A stretch of 64,000 bases of DNA, from positions 64,806-128,805 of the forward strand of contig CAWBEH010000008.1 in the NCBI GenBank assembly GCA_963787725.1, written 5' to 3'. Origin of the DNA: an uncultured Actinomycetota bacterium (GTDB taxonomy: Bacteria > Actinomycetota > Actinomycetes > Actinomycetales > Dermatophilaceae). The notes beneath the pieces were generated by a model. That model worked only from the letters and a program-made list of their open reading frames with translations, was not told where the DNA came from and made no database searches. The position numbers were made by a program, and so were the translations under genes. Position 1 is the first letter of the stretch; each line of letters opens with the position of its first letter. Of the stretch, positions 2,065-52,862 are shown one piece after another.

Positions 2065-3018
2065 CTACCGCCATGCCCGGGTCGCCGTGTCGAGGGCGTC
2101 GATCTCGTCTTGGGTCAGTTGGAACGTGAGCGCCTCGGCGTTGGCGGTGGCCTGCTTTCGGTTCTTGGCCCCGGGGATGGGCAGAACCGTGTCGTTCTCG
2201 ATCAGCCAGCGCAGGGCCACCTGCCCAGGGGTTTTGCCATACCGTGCGCCTATCTGTTGAAGCAGGGCGGTGACCGGCTCGAGCGCCGTCAGATCCCGGC
2301 CACGGAACGGTTTGCCGAAACGCCGCAGGCCACGAGGCCGGTTGGTCCGGGTGTACCGGCCGGTGAGCGCGCCGCTGGCCAGCGGCTGGTAGGCGATCAG
2401 GGTGATGCCCAGCTCCCGGCAGACATCCAACACCCCGTTTGTCTCCGGCCGGCGGTGCAGCAGCGAGTACCCCACCTGGTTGGACGCCAGGGGTATGCCA
2501 CGCCGGGCAAGAGCGGCATGCGCCAGGCGCATCTGGTCGGCCGAGTAGTTGCTCACCCCGACGGCGCGGACCTGCCCGGCCGCGACGGCGTCGGCCATCA
2601 GCTCCATCAGGCGCGGAATCTCCACCCGCCGTGACGGGAAATGGTGCTGGTAAAGGTCGACGCGTTCACGGTGCAGCCGGGCCAGGCTGTCGGCGAGGTG
2701 CCGTGGCATGTCGTCCGCGGTGGCCCATATGGTGGCCGGGAACTTGGTGGCGATCACGGCCGCGTCGCTGGACAACTCCCCCAGCCGTCGCTCCGACGCG
2801 CCACCGGCATACATCGCTGCCGTGTCGAAGAGAGTCACCCCCGCCGCGACGCTAGCCTCCCAAGCTCCACGCTCCTCGTCGCGACCCTCGGCACCGCCGT
2901 AGGCGATCTTGGCCGGGTGCAGCCGGGCCAGCCCATGCGCCTCTCCCCAGGTCATCGCCCCGACGCCGAGCCGCGGCACCAGGACGTCGCTACGTCCGAG
3001 CGGCTGTACAAGTGGCAT
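2065..3018 (-). CDS. aldo/keto reductase
   Basis: MPLVQPLGRSDVLVPRLGVGAMTWG; FDTAAMY, IATKF, DLYQHH, VGVSNY and PIPGAK AKR motifs; ATG at 3018. Confidence 0.9.
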   Translation of the reverse strand: MPLVQPLGRSDVLVPRLGVGAMTWGEAHGLARLHPAKIAYGGAEGRDEERGAWEASVAAGVTLFDTAAMYAGGASERRLGELSSDAAVIATKFPATIWATADDMPRHLADSLARLHRERVDLYQHHFPSRRVEIPRLMELMADAVAAGQVRAVGVSNYSADQMRLAHAALARRGIPLASNQVGYSLLHRRPETNGVLDVCRELGITLIAYQPLASGALTGRYTRTNRPRGLRRFGKPFRGRDLTALEPVTALLQQIGARYGKTPGQVALRWLIENDTVLPIPGAKNRKQATANAEALTFQLTQDEIDALDTATRAWR

Positions 3019-3205
3019 GGCCAACCGTCCTGTCCACTCCTGGTCCTCACCTGAGGGTACGCATCGAGTCCATGCCGAGGACACCCGCGAGCGTCCCGGT
3101 TCCCTGCGCGAGGCAACGGCAGAATTGAAGACTCTCACCGGCAAGGAATGGAAGGCGCATAGACTCGGGATTGCCATATACGACGACGGCTCGGATTTTT
3201 GGTCT

Positions 3206-3778
3206 ATGGGGGGCGGAGGCGCAGGGCGCCTTCTGCTCACGGTACCTGAACACCGTTGGCGTGCGTGCTTGCAGGCGTTTGAGAAGCCGACGCCTTTCTC
3301 GGCAAGTCCTGAGATTGGTCTCGCCTATAGCCTGTTCTCCGGGGCCGATTTGGTCGGAAACAATCCGTATGCCCGCTTAGTACTTCTTGTCGCGGCGATA
3401 GAAGCAATAGCGGTACGTAAGGAAAAGCCTGCTGGATGGGTAGCGGAAGTACGCAGGGTAGAGGAGATGCTCAAGGCTGAGAGCGTTGACCCCATCGTCA
3501 TGCAGAGGATTCTCTCAGCGTTCCAAGAGATTCGCAGAGAGTCTATTGGTGAAGCGTGTCAACGGGCTGCGGGCGAAACTGAGTGGACGACGCTCCACGG
3601 CCTGTCGGCGGCGGCTTTTGTCAAGAAGTGCTATCGGGCGCGAAGCCTTATCGTTCATGGTTCCCTTGAGCGGCCGCCACACGCTGAAGTTGGGTTAATG
3701 GCTGCGGAGTTGAGTGGACTCGTCGGCCTGCTGATTGCCGGGGCCAACGTCGCTAGGGCGGCGAAGGCATCGCGGTAG
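3206..3778 (+). CDS. HEPN-domain protein (ApeA/MAE_28990-like), probably 5'-truncated
   Basis: RLVLLVAAIEAIA helix and KCYRARSLIVHG (Rx4-6H motif); AT-richer codons than the flanks. The frame stays open upstream of ATG 3206 and runs into the AKR gene, so the start is uncertain. Confidence 0.55.
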   Translation: MGGGGAGRLLLTVPEHRWRACLQAFEKPTPFSASPEIGLAYSLFSGADLVGNNPYARLVLLVAAIEAIAVRKEKPAGWVAEVRRVEEMLKAESVDPIVMQRILSAFQEIRRESIGEACQRAAGETEWTTLHGLSAAAFVKKCYRARSLIVHGSLERPPHAEVGLMAAELSGLVGLLIAGANVARAAKASR

Positions 3779-3809
3779 CCGGCTCGCGGCTCCTCCAGCC
3801 GCGTAGAGG

Positions 3810-4209
3810 CCCGTCGCCGCTCGGCATACTCTTCGACCGCCGACTCGGTGAACCGCACCAAGCCGCGTGAGAGCGCGTGCGCCTCTCAGGTCCCTTCAGT
3901 CTCGGCCTCCATCGAACTTCCCCGGGTCGTCCTTCCCGCACTTGCTGCAGCGTCGGTAAGCGCCGTCCGCTGAGTGCTCCATATGCCACTTGTGGTGGAT
4001 GTTGAGTCGGCAGAGCAAGGGCTTACGGCTTGGGGCCGGGCTTGTGGTCATGTCCTTCTCCTTGGTGAACGCCTGAGGAGCACCCCACCTGCCAACCGAA
4101 CCGAGAGTCGCGGTGTCAAACTCCGAGGGTAGACCCGTTCAGGGCTCACCCGGAGGTAGTCGGCGACCTCGGCCTCGGTCATCATCGGCGGCGACGATTT
4201 CCCCATCAT
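3810..4209 (-). pseudogene. excisionase-like HTH (HTH_17) gene interrupted by an insert
   Basis: N-half MMTEAEVADYLRVSPERVY (4185-4129) and C-half GLVRFTESAVEEYAERRR (~3864-3810) are in the same frame, separated by stops and a small ORF. Confidence 0.5.
3896..4051 (-). CDS. 51-aa Cys/His-rich small protein (putative zinc ribbon), below the ORF-track cutoff
   Basis: MTTSPAPSRKPLLCRLNIHHKWHMEHSADGAYRRCSKCGKDDPGKFDGGRD*; strong AAGGAGAAGGA RBS; C-x4-HH...CxxC pattern. Confidence 0.65.
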   Translation of the reverse strand: MTTSPAPSRKPLLCRLNIHHKWHMEHSADGAYRRCSKCGKDDPGKFDGGRD

Positions 4210-4324
4210 CTCCGGGAGCGTGGCACGGGCCGACCAGCTTGGGCTAGAGGCTCGGTGTCGCCGCTCCGGCCTACCCTCGACTATGGCGTGGTCGCATGGC
4301 CCTCCCCGACAGGAGCGCGGGACC

Positions 4325-49073: not shown

Positions 49074-49138
49074 GCGGCAACTGTATGACTCACGGGCACC
49101 CGCGCCCGGAGCGGTCCGCCGTAGTAGCGTCTCGTGGC

Positions 49139-49801
49139 GTGCACTTCGTGATCATGGGCTGCGGCCGCGTCGGGTCCACGCTGGCCAAGAGCCTCAGCAA
49201 GCGGGGTCACGACGTCGCGATCATCGACGCGGAGCCCGCCGCGTTCCGCCGGCTCGGCAGCTCGTTCGAGGGCATGACGGTCACCGGGATCGGGTTCGAC
49301 CGCGACACGTTGAAGGCCGCCAGGATCGACGAGGCGTACGCGTTCGCGGCCGTCTCGAGTGGCGACAACTCCAACATCCTCGCCGCGCGCGTCGCCCGTG
49401 AGACCTTCGGCGTCGAACACGTGGCGGCCCGGATCTACGACCCGGGACGCGCGATGGTCTACCAGCGCCTCGGCATCCCCACGGTGGCGACGGTGCGCTG
49501 GACCTCCGACCAGATGCTGCAGCTGTTGCTGCCGCAGGGCTCTATACCGGCCCTCACCGACCCGAGCGGGCGTGTCGTCGTGGCGCAGGTCCCGCTGGCC
49601 CGCTCCTGGGTGGGGCGTCGCCTCACGGAGGTCGAGTCGGTGACCGGTTCGCGGATCGCCTTCATCACCCGTTTGGGTGACGGGCTGATCCCGGGACCCG
49701 ACACGGTGTTCCAGGACGGTGACCAGGTGCATGTCGTGGCGGCGACCGACGACCTCGGTCGTATCGAGAAGGTCTACGACCAGCCGCCACCGGCCCACTG
49801 A
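49139..49801 (+). CDS. trkA: TrkA-type RCK potassium-uptake regulatory protein (CeoB-like)
   Basis: MHFVIMGCGRVG, GIGFDRDTL, GDNSNIL, ARIYDP. Confidence 0.9.
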   Translation: MHFVIMGCGRVGSTLAKSLSKRGHDVAIIDAEPAAFRRLGSSFEGMTVTGIGFDRDTLKAARIDEAYAFAAVSSGDNSNILAARVARETFGVEHVAARIYDPGRAMVYQRLGIPTVATVRWTSDQMLQLLLPQGSIPALTDPSGRVVVAQVPLARSWVGRRLTEVESVTGSRIAFITRLGDGLIPGPDTVFQDGDQVHVVAATDDLGRIEKVYDQPPPAH

Positions 49802-49821: not shown

Positions 49822-50511
49822 ATGCGAGTCGTCATCACCGGAGCGGGCAGTGTCGGGCGGTCCATCGCTCGAGAGCTGCTCCACAACGGCCACCAGGTAC
49901 TGATCATCGACAAGGACGCCGACGACGTCCAGGCGTCGCGCGTCCCGGACGCGGCCTGGCTCCTCGCCGACGCCTGCGAGATCGCGGTCCTCGAGGAAGC
50001 CAGGGTCCACGAGTGCGATGTCGTCGTGGCGGCGACCGGCGACGACAAGGTGAACCTCGTGGTCTCGCTGCTGTCGAAGACCGAGTTCGGCGTGCCCCGC
50101 ACCGTGGCGCGGGTCAACAACCCCAAGAACGAGTGGATGTTCGACGAGTCGTGGGGCGTCGACGTGGCGGTGTCGACGCCGCGCCTGATGACGGCGCTCG
50201 TCGAGGAGGCCGTCAGCGTCGGCGACCTGGTCCGCATCTTCCAGTTCCAGCAGGCCAAGGCGTCGATGGTCGAGCTGACCATGCCGGGCGAGAGCCCCTA
50301 CATCGGCAAGCGGATCGCCGAGATCGAGTGGCCGGACGACACGGTGCTCGTCGGGATCATCCGCGACGACCGGCCGATCGCGCCGAGCCGCGACGACGCG
50401 GTGGAAGCGCACGACGAGCTGCTGTTCATCACGACGCCGGACAACGAGGACGTCCTCGAGCAGATGCTCTCCCCTGGCCCCCGTCCCCCTCGGGATGACG
50501 ACTACAACTGA
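49822..50511 (+). CDS. trkA: TrkA-type RCK protein (CeoC-like); stop codon formed at the IS junction
   Basis: MRVVITGAGSVG, DACE, TGDDKVNL, ARVNNPKNEW. Confidence 0.9.
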   Translation: MRVVITGAGSVGRSIARELLHNGHQVLIIDKDADDVQASRVPDAAWLLADACEIAVLEEARVHECDVVVAATGDDKVNLVVSLLSKTEFGVPRTVARVNNPKNEWMFDESWGVDVAVSTPRLMTALVEEAVSVGDLVRIFQFQQAKASMVELTMPGESPYIGKRIAEIEWPDDTVLVGIIRDDRPIAPSRDDAVEAHDELLFITTPDNEDVLEQMLSPGPRPPRDDDYN

Positions 50512-50589
50512 TATGTAGCGGCTTGTTGTCAAGTGGGCAGGGTGAGGCGCCGCCGGGGTTGGTTCCTGGCGGCGCCTCGTCGCTTCGTC

Positions 50590-50762
50590 GGGCGGGTTGC
50601 TGGCGAGCGTGTCGTTGGCGACGCGCGGTCAGACTGATATGCGCGGGTTGGTTACCGCAGGACGGTGGTTCGGCAGGAGCGGGACCGCGGCTCTAGGGTC
50701 GAGCGTCGCTGTTCCCGAGAGGGATTGGCTGCTCATAGTTGATTCGCGGGTCGCTCCTCGCG
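50590..50762 (-). ncRNA. putative bridge RNA in the 3' non-coding end of the IS110 element (ends approximate)
   Basis: A clear stem-flanked target-binding internal loop and a less well-defined donor-binding loop carry CAACT (50741-50737), CCTAG (50697-50693), ACCGTC (50666-50661) and CATATCAG (50641-50634), which match the target and donor junctions. Confidence 0.7.
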
Positions 50763-50803
50763 CTGCCGTCAGCGGCCGCGGGGACGAAGCGGGCCGTGGG
50801 TGG

Positions 50804-51898
50804 TCAGTCGTCCATGACGGCCAGGGACCAGCACCAGCCGGCGAGCTCGCGGGCGATGGCAACGTTCGCGATGACGTGCCGTTTGTGCCGCTCGGTAAAG
50901 GTGACCCAGCGATGGTGCAACCGCCGGTTGCCCTCGTCGCCGCGGGCTCGCGCGGCGGCCGGAGCCAGCTCCCAGCGCTGCCGCATCGTGGTGCCGACGA
51001 CGTACCGGGCCCGGTGATGCCACGCGGCCTCGACGAGGAGTCGGCGGGCGTGACCGTTGCCGGTCTTGGTGACCGACCCCTGGACCCGGGATGCGCCGGA
51101 GGAGTACTCGCTGGGCACCAGCCCCACGAACGAGCCGATGGTGTTGCCGGTGAACCGGTGCCAGTCACCGATCTCGACGGCAAGGGCGAACCCGGTCAAG
51201 GTCGAGATCCCGCGCAGGCACCCCAGCCGGTGCACCACCGACGTGAACTCGCTGTCCGCGGCCATCGCCGCGATCGCCGCATCGAGACGGTCCCGGCGCG
51301 CCTTGACCGTCAATACCGCTTCGAAGTCGGACTCGAACGCCAGCCGACTCGCTGCCGACTCCAGCCGCTGCCGACGCAGCCACGCCTCATGCGCACCGGT
51401 CCACGCCCGCCCACCGCAGTACACGATGCCCTGCCGCAGCAACAGCTTGGACAGCCGGTGCCGGGCCCGCATCAGATCCCCGCGACAGTCCTCCCGCGCC
51501 CGCACCAGGTCCCGGGCCGCCTCCTGGTCGATGCTGGGCACCGTCACCGACGTCACCTCGTCCATCACCTCGTCGGGGCGCAGCAGCCGCGCCAGGTGCA
51601 ACGCGTCACGCTGGTCGGTCTTGACCCGGTCGCCGCTGGGCCGCTGCAGCTTGCTCGGCGCCGCGACCTGACACCGCACGCCGGCCGCGGTCAGCGCCCG
51701 GTACAGCCCGAACCCCGTCGGGCCGGCCTCATACGTCGCCGCCGCCGTCCCCGGTAGCGCCCGCACCCACCGCAGGATCTCGCCATGATCCGGGGTCAGC
51801 CGGGCCCTGAACACCTCGCCGGTCACCCCATCGATCGCCGCCGCGACCACCGATCGTGCGTGCACATCCAGTCCCACACTCGTACGCTCAGAGAACAC
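50804..51898 (-). CDS. IS110 DEDD recombinase/transposase
   Basis: GLDVH, YEAGPTG, KTDQRDA (RuvC DEDD); GLVPSEYSSG (catalytic Ser motif); TKTGNGHARRLLVEAAW. Confidence 0.95.
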   Translation of the reverse strand: MFSERTSVGLDVHARSVVAAAIDGVTGEVFRARLTPDHGEILRWVRALPGTAAATYEAGPTGFGLYRALTAAGVRCQVAAPSKLQRPSGDRVKTDQRDALHLARLLRPDEVMDEVTSVTVPSIDQEAARDLVRAREDCRGDLMRARHRLSKLLLRQGIVYCGGRAWTGAHEAWLRRQRLESAASRLAFESDFEAVLTVKARRDRLDAAIAAMAADSEFTSVVHRLGCLRGISTLTGFALAVEIGDWHRFTGNTIGSFVGLVPSEYSSGASRVQGSVTKTGNGHARRLLVEAAWHHRARYVVGTTMRQRWELAPAAARARGDEGNRRLHHRWVTFTERHKRHVIANVAIARELAGWCWSLAVMDD

Positions 51899-52028
51899 CG
51901 GGGCCTCCCACACATGTCGGATAGGCCGAGCAGGCAGCCCCCACTCGGTAACCCACGAATCTGAGTGAGTGAGGCCCCGGCCCGCAACCACCCAGCAGAC
52001 CCGAGCAGTCACGCCATACCGTCTAGGC

Positions 52029-52054
52029 GGCTGAACGAGCTGCTCCGTTCGGCT
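52029..52054. terminator. hairpin between convergent trkA and DUF3159
   Basis: GCTGAACG (52030-52037) / CGTTCGGC (52046-52053), starting 4 nt after the restored TAG. Confidence 0.55.
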
Positions 52055-52076
52055 CGACGCAGCGTCAAGCCGAGCG

Positions 52077-52862
52077 TCAGGCCTCGGCCGGTCGAGCGTC
52101 GGGGTCGTCGAGCGGGGTGTTGCCGCGCAGCAGCAACAGACCGATGACCAGCACGGCCAGCAGGTAGGCGGGCCAGCCCAGGGCGATCTTCGCGACGCCG
52201 AGGGCCGCGACCTGACCACCGAGGTACAGCGGGACCATCACGGCCAGCCGGATCACGTCGAGCACGACGATGACCCAGCCGACCCGGCTGGCCACCTTGA
52301 CGACACCCTCGTGACGACGCCAGCCGGTGAGCAGCTCGGTCACCGCGGCCTCGTCGGCCTCGGCGCGCGCGACCGTCTCCGGATCCTGGGGCGCGCCCTT
52401 CTTCGACGATGCCTTGAGCCGTTCGCTGGCCTCGGAGAGCTCCGGGTCGGCCGCCGCGATGAGGAACCCGAACAGCGGCCACCGGATCAGGTTGGTGACC
52501 GCGAAGACCAGCCCGACCGCAGCGGTCTGGATCATGCCCGGCAGGAACGCGTCCTCGGCCCGACCCGACCGCAGCGCGAAGAAGGCGGCGACAGCCACCG
52601 CCACCGCCGCATACAGGAGGAAGCGCAGCGTCTCGCGCCGCATCAGGCGCAGCACCGCGAGGACGGCCAGCGCGGCGCCGGCCGCGAGGACCGCCGTGCG
52701 AACGTCCCGGGTGACCGTCCACAGCACGACGAACGCGATCGTCGGCACCGCCGACTCGAGGGCGCCGCGCCAGCCGCCGATGGCGGCGCTCAGGCGGGCG
52801 CGCAACAGCTCCTCGACGGTGACGTATGCCGCGGCCCCGCCGATGCGCGCCGGCTCAGCCAC
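52077..52862 (-). CDS. DUF3159 membrane protein
   Basis: GGWRGALESAVPTIAF, GRAEDAFLPG, RWPLFGF, KIALGWP. Confidence 0.88.
   Translation of the reverse strand: MAEPARIGGAAAYVTVEELLRARLSAAIGGWRGALESAVPTIAFVVLWTVTRDVRTAVLAAGAALAVLAVLRLMRRETLRFLLYAAVAVAVAAFFALRSGRAEDAFLPGMIQTAAVGLVFAVTNLIRWPLFGFLIAAADPELSEASERLKASSKKGAPQDPETVARAEADEAAVTELLTGWRRHEGVVKVASRVGWVIVVLDVIRLAVMVPLYLGGQVAALGVAKIALGWPAYLLAVLVIGLLLLRGNTPLDDPDARPAEA

Follow-up and report, generated by a model that had tools for sequence, protein, structure and literature searches.

Insertion sequences (IS) of the IS1111 group have subterminal inverted repeats of 7-17 bp and a longer non-coding region downstream of the transposase gene (PMC11187229, PMC11208160). 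The IS110 family is further marked by a G(L)-P----SG serine motif in the transposase (PMC11187229). We analyzed an element of this kind in a 64,000-nucleotide (nt) stretch of DNA from an uncultured Actinomycetota bacterium of the Dermatophilaceae (GenBank assembly GCA_963787725.1, contig CAWBEH010000008.1, positions 64,806 to 128,805; hereafter the window). The host genome, G000, comprises 18 contigs and 4.69 Mb with 70.9% G+C. The element lies exactly within the stop codon of the potassium-uptake gene trkA, and the TrkA protein is unchanged. It is an IS110-family element with IS1111-type organization, and all the features of both that could be tested were found in it. Taken as a whole, the account that follows is very probably correct: a recently active, RNA-guided element of the IS110/IS1111 type, with the boundaries and guides given here, whose place in a stop codon would be a by-product of a CTAG-containing target together with selection.

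G000 holds four related copies of the element: the window copy, one on contig C17, one on C14 (75% identical) and one on C12 that is split by about 2.8 kb. The C17 copy is 99.6% identical to the window copy across 1515 nt. Their common sequence extends only from 50508 to 52026, the flanks are unrelated, and both copies read flank-CT^GATATGTAG...CCATACCGT^CT^AG-flank (^ marks a junction). The dinucleotide CT, found in the window at 50508-50509 and 52023-52024, is the sole sequence repeated at both junctions, and no target duplication beyond it is present in these two copies or in related copies. As the flanks are unrelated and only CT is repeated in the two copies, the element consists of 50510-52022 on the minus strand plus one 2-nt core, 1515 nt with the core included. 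The core at the left junction (50508-50509) reads AG in the orientation of the element.

In that orientation the termini AG^AC(G/C)GTATGG...CATATC^AG are common to copies from 14 genomes of the genus and to copies from other families of the order. An earlier interpretation of the window made from the letters alone (the sequence-only reading) had staked its boundaries on other copies having the same ends, as the second copy and the related copies do. The right end finishes in CTACATATC (50510-50518, minus strand), the last two bases of which, TC, make TGA on the opposite strand. ATATC^AG is kept in the aligned copies from the order and in all 61 full copies of the independent sample described below. 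The left non-coding end is short (51899-52022, minus strand) and, by sequence comparison, starts with ACGGTATGGCGTGAC and carries the subterminal repeat TATGG.GTGAC. Counting the core, subterminal inverted repeats of the TATGGAGTGAC type lie at distances of 6 nt and 4 nt from the junctions; they match perfectly over 14 bp in the L066 copy and imperfectly in the window copy. The non-coding end downstream of the transposase gene spans 294 nt (50510-50803) versus 124 nt upstream of it (51899-52022). A circular intermediate of the element would have the junction ...CTACATATC-AG-ACGGTATGG.

The transposase, or recombinase, is encoded at 50804-51898 on the minus strand and has 364 amino acids (aa), with a GTG start after GGGAGG. 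It matches Pfam PF01548, the N-terminal DEDD/RuvC-like domain (E = 3e-13, profile positions 1-151 of 155), and PF02371, the C-terminal domain (E = 2.5e-14). The translation contains the motifs GLDVH, YEAGPTG, KTDQRDA and GLVPSEYSSG, the last in agreement with the serine motif of the IS110 family. At least 8000 homologous transposases are encoded in Actinomycetota at E <= 1e-40, annotated simply as IS110 family.

The interrupted trkA (49822-50511, plus strand) encodes 229 aa with TrkA_N and TrkA_C domains (Pfam). Its 3' end is GAC GAC TAC AAC TGA and the protein terminates in DDDYN followed by the stop. In the present stop codon, TGA at 50509-50511, the T is the core and GA is the right end of the element. 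The original stop, TAG, is retained at 52024-52026 within the right junction CT^AG (52023-52026). Removal of the element and one core gives GAC TAC AAC TAG GCG GCT followed by a hairpin, that is, GACTACAA-CT-AGGCGGCTG. AAC TAG as the pre-insertion sequence is a reconstruction whose exact form we infer; the uninterrupted spacer between trkA and the convergent gene for a DUF3159 protein (52077-52862, minus strand; Pfam PF11361) would then read ACAACTAGGCGG / GACTACAACTAGGCGGCTG. The sequence-only reading had proposed a scarless IS110 insertion at a CT core inside the trkA stop, and both the 99.6% identical second copy and the guide loops described below bear this out. It was also right that AAC TGA now stands at the same codon with the DDDYN terminus unchanged, as is plain from the sequence. 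The empty site that it gave, GAC TAC AAC TAG and then a hairpin, is upheld as a reconstruction by the relatives.

The relatives listed number 29; two of them, G008 and G018, are unpublished genomes and no claim is based on these two. Among complete trkA genes, the closest three (94-91% identical) have the stop at the same codon as the window gene, in the form DDY-X-stop, and it is TAG in two of them. The closest relative carries TAGCGGGCTGGACGAGCATGCTCCGTTCGG, a homologue of the right flank in the window, TAGGCGGCTGAACGAGCTGCTCCGTTCGG, without the IS. Since this flank homologue is led by TAG, the TAG is native chromosome. No relative with both flanks identified has a 1.5-kb insert at the trkA stop, and so the comparison with empty orthologous loci that had been suggested did yield relatives without the element. 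For the second copy, an empty homologue of the C17 site was sought in the genus and only a partial match was found.

Other insertions are seen at the same position. In the closest relative, G010 (L009:2184-2290, reverse-complement), the same trkA stop is occupied by an unrelated insert of about 100 nt, followed by TAGCGGGCTGGACGAGCATGCTCCGTTCGG. The insert resembles a miniature inverted-repeat transposable element (MITE), with inverted ends of the GTC(A)CCCC(A/G)CGAAGT type and an apparent TA duplication (CGC TA^A ... TA^G CGG). Another relative (L013) has tandem copies of the same MITE-like repeat at its trkA stop. Within the genus, insertions have landed at the trkA stop repeatedly.

The bridge/seek RNA is located in the 3' non-coding end of the element. 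We aligned the 3' ends of 15 lineages and found a conserved stem enclosing an internal loop, on which RNAalifold and the minimum free energy (MFE) fold agree (z = -4.5, with several compensatory pairs). All its parts are on the minus strand. The target-binding stem-loop spans 50675-50758, as given by the RNAalifold and MFE folds and by covariation of its loop with the flanks. In the fold it has an outer stem (50758-50752 with 50681-50675), a stem next to the loop (50750-50745 with 50689-50685) and an inner stem (50735-50731 with 50704-50700). The 5' side of the loop is AAUCAACUA (50744-50736) and the 3' side is ACCCUAGAG (50699-50691); both covary with the flanks. Two donor guides follow. CACCGUC (50661-50667) is complementary to the left end GACGGT, with compensatory changes among lineages, and CAUAUCAG (50634-50641) has the same sense as the right end and core, as seen in the alignment and the sequence. 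Expression of the bridge RNA is predicted.

CAACU in the 5' loop is the reverse complement of the core and three bases of one flank, and CCUAG in the 3' loop reads in the same sense as the other flank (three bases) and the core. Jointly the two spell CAACTAGG, the trkA site. Between them, the four guide segments match the trkA target and both ends of the element, and in more than 30 lineages they change together with flanks and ends. The guides were assigned because of this covariation across lineages and not because of one match. For the 5' loop, the guides UCGGCU, GCAACU, CGGGCU, UACACCU and GUUGUUCU occur in copies where the flank after the core AG reads CCGA, TTGC, CCCG, GTGTA and AACAAC, respectively. 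Over 59 sites the mean contiguous match between 5' loop guide and right flank is 3.24 nt versus 0.77 nt when shuffled, and none of 5000 shuffles reaches the observed value. The result is unchanged with one site per distinct guide (34 guides). In the 3' loop, CTAG, TTAG or TCAG tracks left flanks ending in CT, TT or TC at 54 of the 59 sites. The donor guide CACCGUC behaves likewise, changing with the left end in three other lineage groups: CGGUC pairs with the left end GACCG in L059, L044 and L072, GCGUC with GACGC in the L074 group, and UCGUC with GACGA in L069.

These matches suggest how the element came to its present site. The 5' side of the loop (CAACU) would pair with the core and three flank bases and the 3' side (CCUAG) would match the other flank and the core, with the left and right ends of the element matched by CACCGUC and CAUAUCAG, respectively. 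Recombination at the CT core would have put the element into CAA-CT-AGG, the last sense codon and the TAG of trkA. With the right end ...ATATC before the core, the trkA strand would come to read C-TGA, keeping the exact C-terminus of TrkA, and the old TAG and its hairpins would be left at the far junction.

To see how the rest of the family is placed, every copy with both flanks available was checked, in a first sample from the genus and order and in an independent sample comprising 80 loci in other genera. Nearly all the targets read (C/T)(T/C)^AG, and most of them are the rare CTAG. Next to the core, the target has the two bases CT at 68 of 82 sites, TT at 7 and TC at 7, with no CC and no purines. 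On the convergent strand CT, TT and TC are read as TAG, TAA and TGA. This adjacent dinucleotide changed eight times independently on the transposase tree, always within the stop-compatible set. The left junction keeps flank and core (C-TAG), and the right end ...ATATC gives C-TGA on the other strand in every copy recovered.

Genes ending at a junction stop in the first sample include those for TrkA in the window, an rve integrase and a DsbA-like protein, and further Pfam-supported cases are two ABC-F ATPases, GpsA twice, an aldehyde dehydrogenase and YflT. Some genes that run in the same direction as the transposase have TAG at the left junction as their stop. Two sites (L066 and L068) have convergent genes that overlap in CTAG, and both ends are preserved. 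At the gpsA site, both proteins terminate at the same residues in the nearest orthologue that lacks an interruption.

We tallied stop codons with a coding test based on open reading frame length and G+C at third codon positions (GC3). By this crude test and with a small control sample, 15 of 38 unique CTAG sites with adequate flanks in the independent sample are in a stop codon, versus 7 of 73 CTAG sites taken from the same flanks as controls (Fisher p = 3e-4). Set against all CTAG sites in G000, of which about 21% are stops by a crude test, the binomial p is 0.007. Pooled, 24 of 58 independent insertions (~40%) are in a stop codon, scattered over the transposase tree with 20 state changes. 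An initial enrichment estimate from nine sites was not significant and the sample was then enlarged. CTAG itself is rare, with 1386 sites in the 4.69 Mb of G000, or 0.11 of expectation (about nine-fold depleted). None of the literature searched describes IS110/IS1111 elements that target stop codons.

Our preferred explanation of this share is a by-product of the CTAG target plus selection. The guide-encoded target of the clade contains CTAG, less often TTAG or TCAG, a sequence that is rare and often a stop, and insertions elsewhere would more likely be purged by selection; together these would leave many copies in stop codons. It is possible instead, and we hold this only tentatively, that stop-codon homing evolved, with guides and right end selected as a safe-harbor device in which the core and adjacent bases spell a stop and TC regenerates TGA. 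The bases next to the core fit such a device, as neither CC nor purines occur there and all eight changes stayed stop-compatible. The same set would, however, result if the mechanism required pyrimidines or an A/T pair by the core, and three of the four pyrimidine pairs are stop-compatible in any case. The invariant ...ATATC end with its C-TGA, the preserved ends of both convergent genes in L066 and L068, and TGA-type lineages found at GAC TGA stops in four of six copies of one genome all favor homing, but TT-type lineages have no stop hits and more than half of the copies are outside stop codons. The excess over controls and over the genomic share also favors it, within the limits of the coding test and the control sample. 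Yet if about half of the intergenic insertions were deleterious, purifying selection alone would lift the share from 24% to about 40%, and selection against insertions in promoters or operons could equally raise it.

Pure coincidence at trkA, for an element without any tendency toward stop codons, is improbable. Coincidence would accommodate the shortness of the target, the existence in the genome of several intergenic, empty CAACTAG sites with a better match, and a TGA that simply follows from the end sequence; against it, the pattern recurs in independent lineages and genomes, on the pooled count and the state changes given above, and many of the genes involved are Pfam-supported. We regard as more improbable still a misplaced boundary, in which the TAG at 52024-52026 belongs to the element, trkA originally ran past AAC and the protein is now truncated. 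The sequence common to the window and C17 copies does run through CTAG on the right, so that these two copies alone are insufficient to place the boundary. Without that TAG, however, the frame stays open well into the DUF3159 gene, whereas relatives end TrkA at the same codon and the closest one has the TAG-led homologue of the right flank in a spacer without the IS. The 3' guide loop contains CCUAG, and in other lineages the base adjacent to TAG changes with the flanks.

Several results do weigh against our account of an active, RNA-guided element. The window and C17 copies have the same guide RNA, and their targets share only CT-AG-nTG, so effective recognition is short, about 8 bp. Some 20 CAACTAG sites in the genome are unoccupied, two of them extending to ACAACTAGGG. 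Exact-pattern scans of genome and metagenome contigs, with the reconstructed site and with the right flank, found no same-species empty site. No relevant Rfam family matched, apart from a chance miRNA-like match, and phmmer gave no match between the transposase and PDB sequences. An outward-facing TTGACA (50527-50532, minus strand) lies 17 nt from the core and does not vary among the 15 aligned lineages, but a sigma-70 scan of 50300-52300 found nothing and no -10 partner is present in the chromosome or at the predicted circle junction, leaving only a -35-like hexamer. The sequence-only reading had pointed out both the hexamer and the want of a -10 partner.

That reading had also placed the insertion at the foot of a terminator. 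Two hairpins do fold between the former trkA stop and the DUF3159 gene (52026-52076). The first is at 52026-52044 with 7 bp and the second, at 52046-52076, is stronger (-31 kcal/mol, z = -2.9). Both are now 1.5 kb from trkA as had been stated, but they lack a U-tract and are shared with DUF3159. A terminator scan of 50300-52300 found no terminator-like site and neither native hairpin has a T-run. Terminators without a U-tract are reported in actinobacteria. The native hairpins would still serve the DUF3159 gene. Hairpins near insertions are not enriched in the family, with median 44-nt energies of -12.7 and -12.5 at the sites versus -13.6 kcal/mol in controls (p = 0.68). A place at the foot of a hairpin is therefore local to the convergent trkA-DUF3159 spacer, and on the question whether other copies also sit in stop codons or at hairpin bases, the first part held for 24 of 58 sites while hairpin adjacency is not a habit of the family.

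A perfect 16-bp G+C hairpin lies inside the right end of the element (50543-50579), 32 nt after the new TGA, and folds on both strands. Its stem covaries among lineages (pairs 224-246 and 225-245). This hairpin may end the transcript of the bridge RNA and transposase and may also substitute as a terminator for trkA. Read-through from trkA would run antisense to the bridge RNA and transposase, the direction that the sequence-only reading had given; it is not assured, as the element's hairpin may stop it.

The neighborhood of the insertion includes a second trkA gene. Two genes with TrkA_N and TrkA_C domains are in tandem, at 49085-49801 (238 aa) and 49822-50511 (229 aa), with a gap of 20 nt. 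Such a paired tandem is the usual arrangement of trkA in actinobacteria.

Other copies of the element vary in structure. The left ends of all lineages have a conserved, covarying hairpin and GGTTGCGGGCCGGGGCC (in the window within 51899-52022, minus strand). The C12 copy in G000 (L064 and L004) is diverged, 79-89% identical, and the DNA of about 2.8 kb that splits it is foreign. Its left end is aberrant, with TGTCGGTATG in place of AGACGGTATG, and CTGTCGG is repeated at its right flank; this repeat may be a record of abnormal recombination. In L053 (G012 contig C4, ~2772-4288), about 1.4 kb is inserted between the target-binding and donor-binding parts of the 3' non-coding end.

CTAG is not alone in its rarity in G000, where CTAG, TTAA, TATA, CTAA and TTAG are at 0.07-0.11 of the expectation from base composition and GATC is at 2.1 times. 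In G094, a copy that has five identical counterparts in the genome (L082) interrupts a dehydrogenase-like gene about 25-30 codons before its expected end, and so targeting is not always harmless. Lineages of different genera (the right flanks of L096, L109, L116 and L143; also L103 and L120) are inserted before (C/A/G)TGTACCCGGCC or GTGTACTGACCG. An rve integrase gene has the L054 copy in its stop codon. For some lineages, the target may be the ends of another insertion sequence. IS4321 and IS5075 similarly target the repeats of Tn21.

The element provides a natural IS1111-type bridge/seek RNA in high-G+C actinobacteria that is fully readable, with four guides assigned by covariation. It suggests that a short guide-encoded target can put an element where the host pays nothing. 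Were the stop-codon habit selected, it would be a new answer to the problem of finding safe sites by an RNA-guided IS, the known cases being repetitive extragenic palindromic (REP) elements and other mobile DNA. Genes approached from either side would keep their products, and each genome would offer thousands of near-neutral landing sites. An annotation rule is also predicted: a gene ending in C-TGA-TATG beside an IS110-family gene probably had TAG as its stop until the element inserted. Such insertions may alter transcription at the 3' end without touching the protein. The habit at the level of the family merits a proper survey.

Among described systems, the IS1111 group with a 3' seekRNA (ISEc11, ISKpn4 and ISPa11; Siddiquee et al. 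2024, PMC11187229) shares with the trkA element a DEDD transposase and the GL-P----SG motif. Also shared are the subterminal inverted repeats, the longer non-coding region after the transposase, the lack of a target duplication and an RNA in which the top-strand match is 5' of the bottom-strand match (PMC11187229). The transposases reported for that group have 330-350 aa (PMC11187229), whereas those of the present clade have 360-364 aa. The hosts here, in contrast to those of the group, are high-G+C Actinomycetota. The targets differ as well, being REP elements, attC sites and transposon inverted repeats in the IS1111 group and short, CTAG-centered sequences, often stop codons, here. Like IS621 (Durrant et al. 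2024, PMC11208160; Hiraizumi et al. 2024, PMC11208158), the element has two programmable loops with two guides each, and the guides read opposite strands around a 2-nt core (CT) for target and donor alike. In IS621 it is the left end, upstream of the recombinase, that encodes the RNA, whereas the RNA of the present element lies downstream. IS621 targets REP sequences, and the present guides specify only about 3+2+3-5 bp. The transposase has no detectable sequence match among the solved structures. Elements that use safe sites by other means include Tn7, which inserts at attTn7 after glmS, and integrative elements that regenerate tRNA 3' ends. As in those elements, insertion here is in or next to the 3' end of a gene and the product is unchanged. 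Tn7 and the tRNA elements, however, depend on protein-DNA recognition of one conserved locus, whereas the element in trkA uses an RNA guide and a short motif found at many stops.

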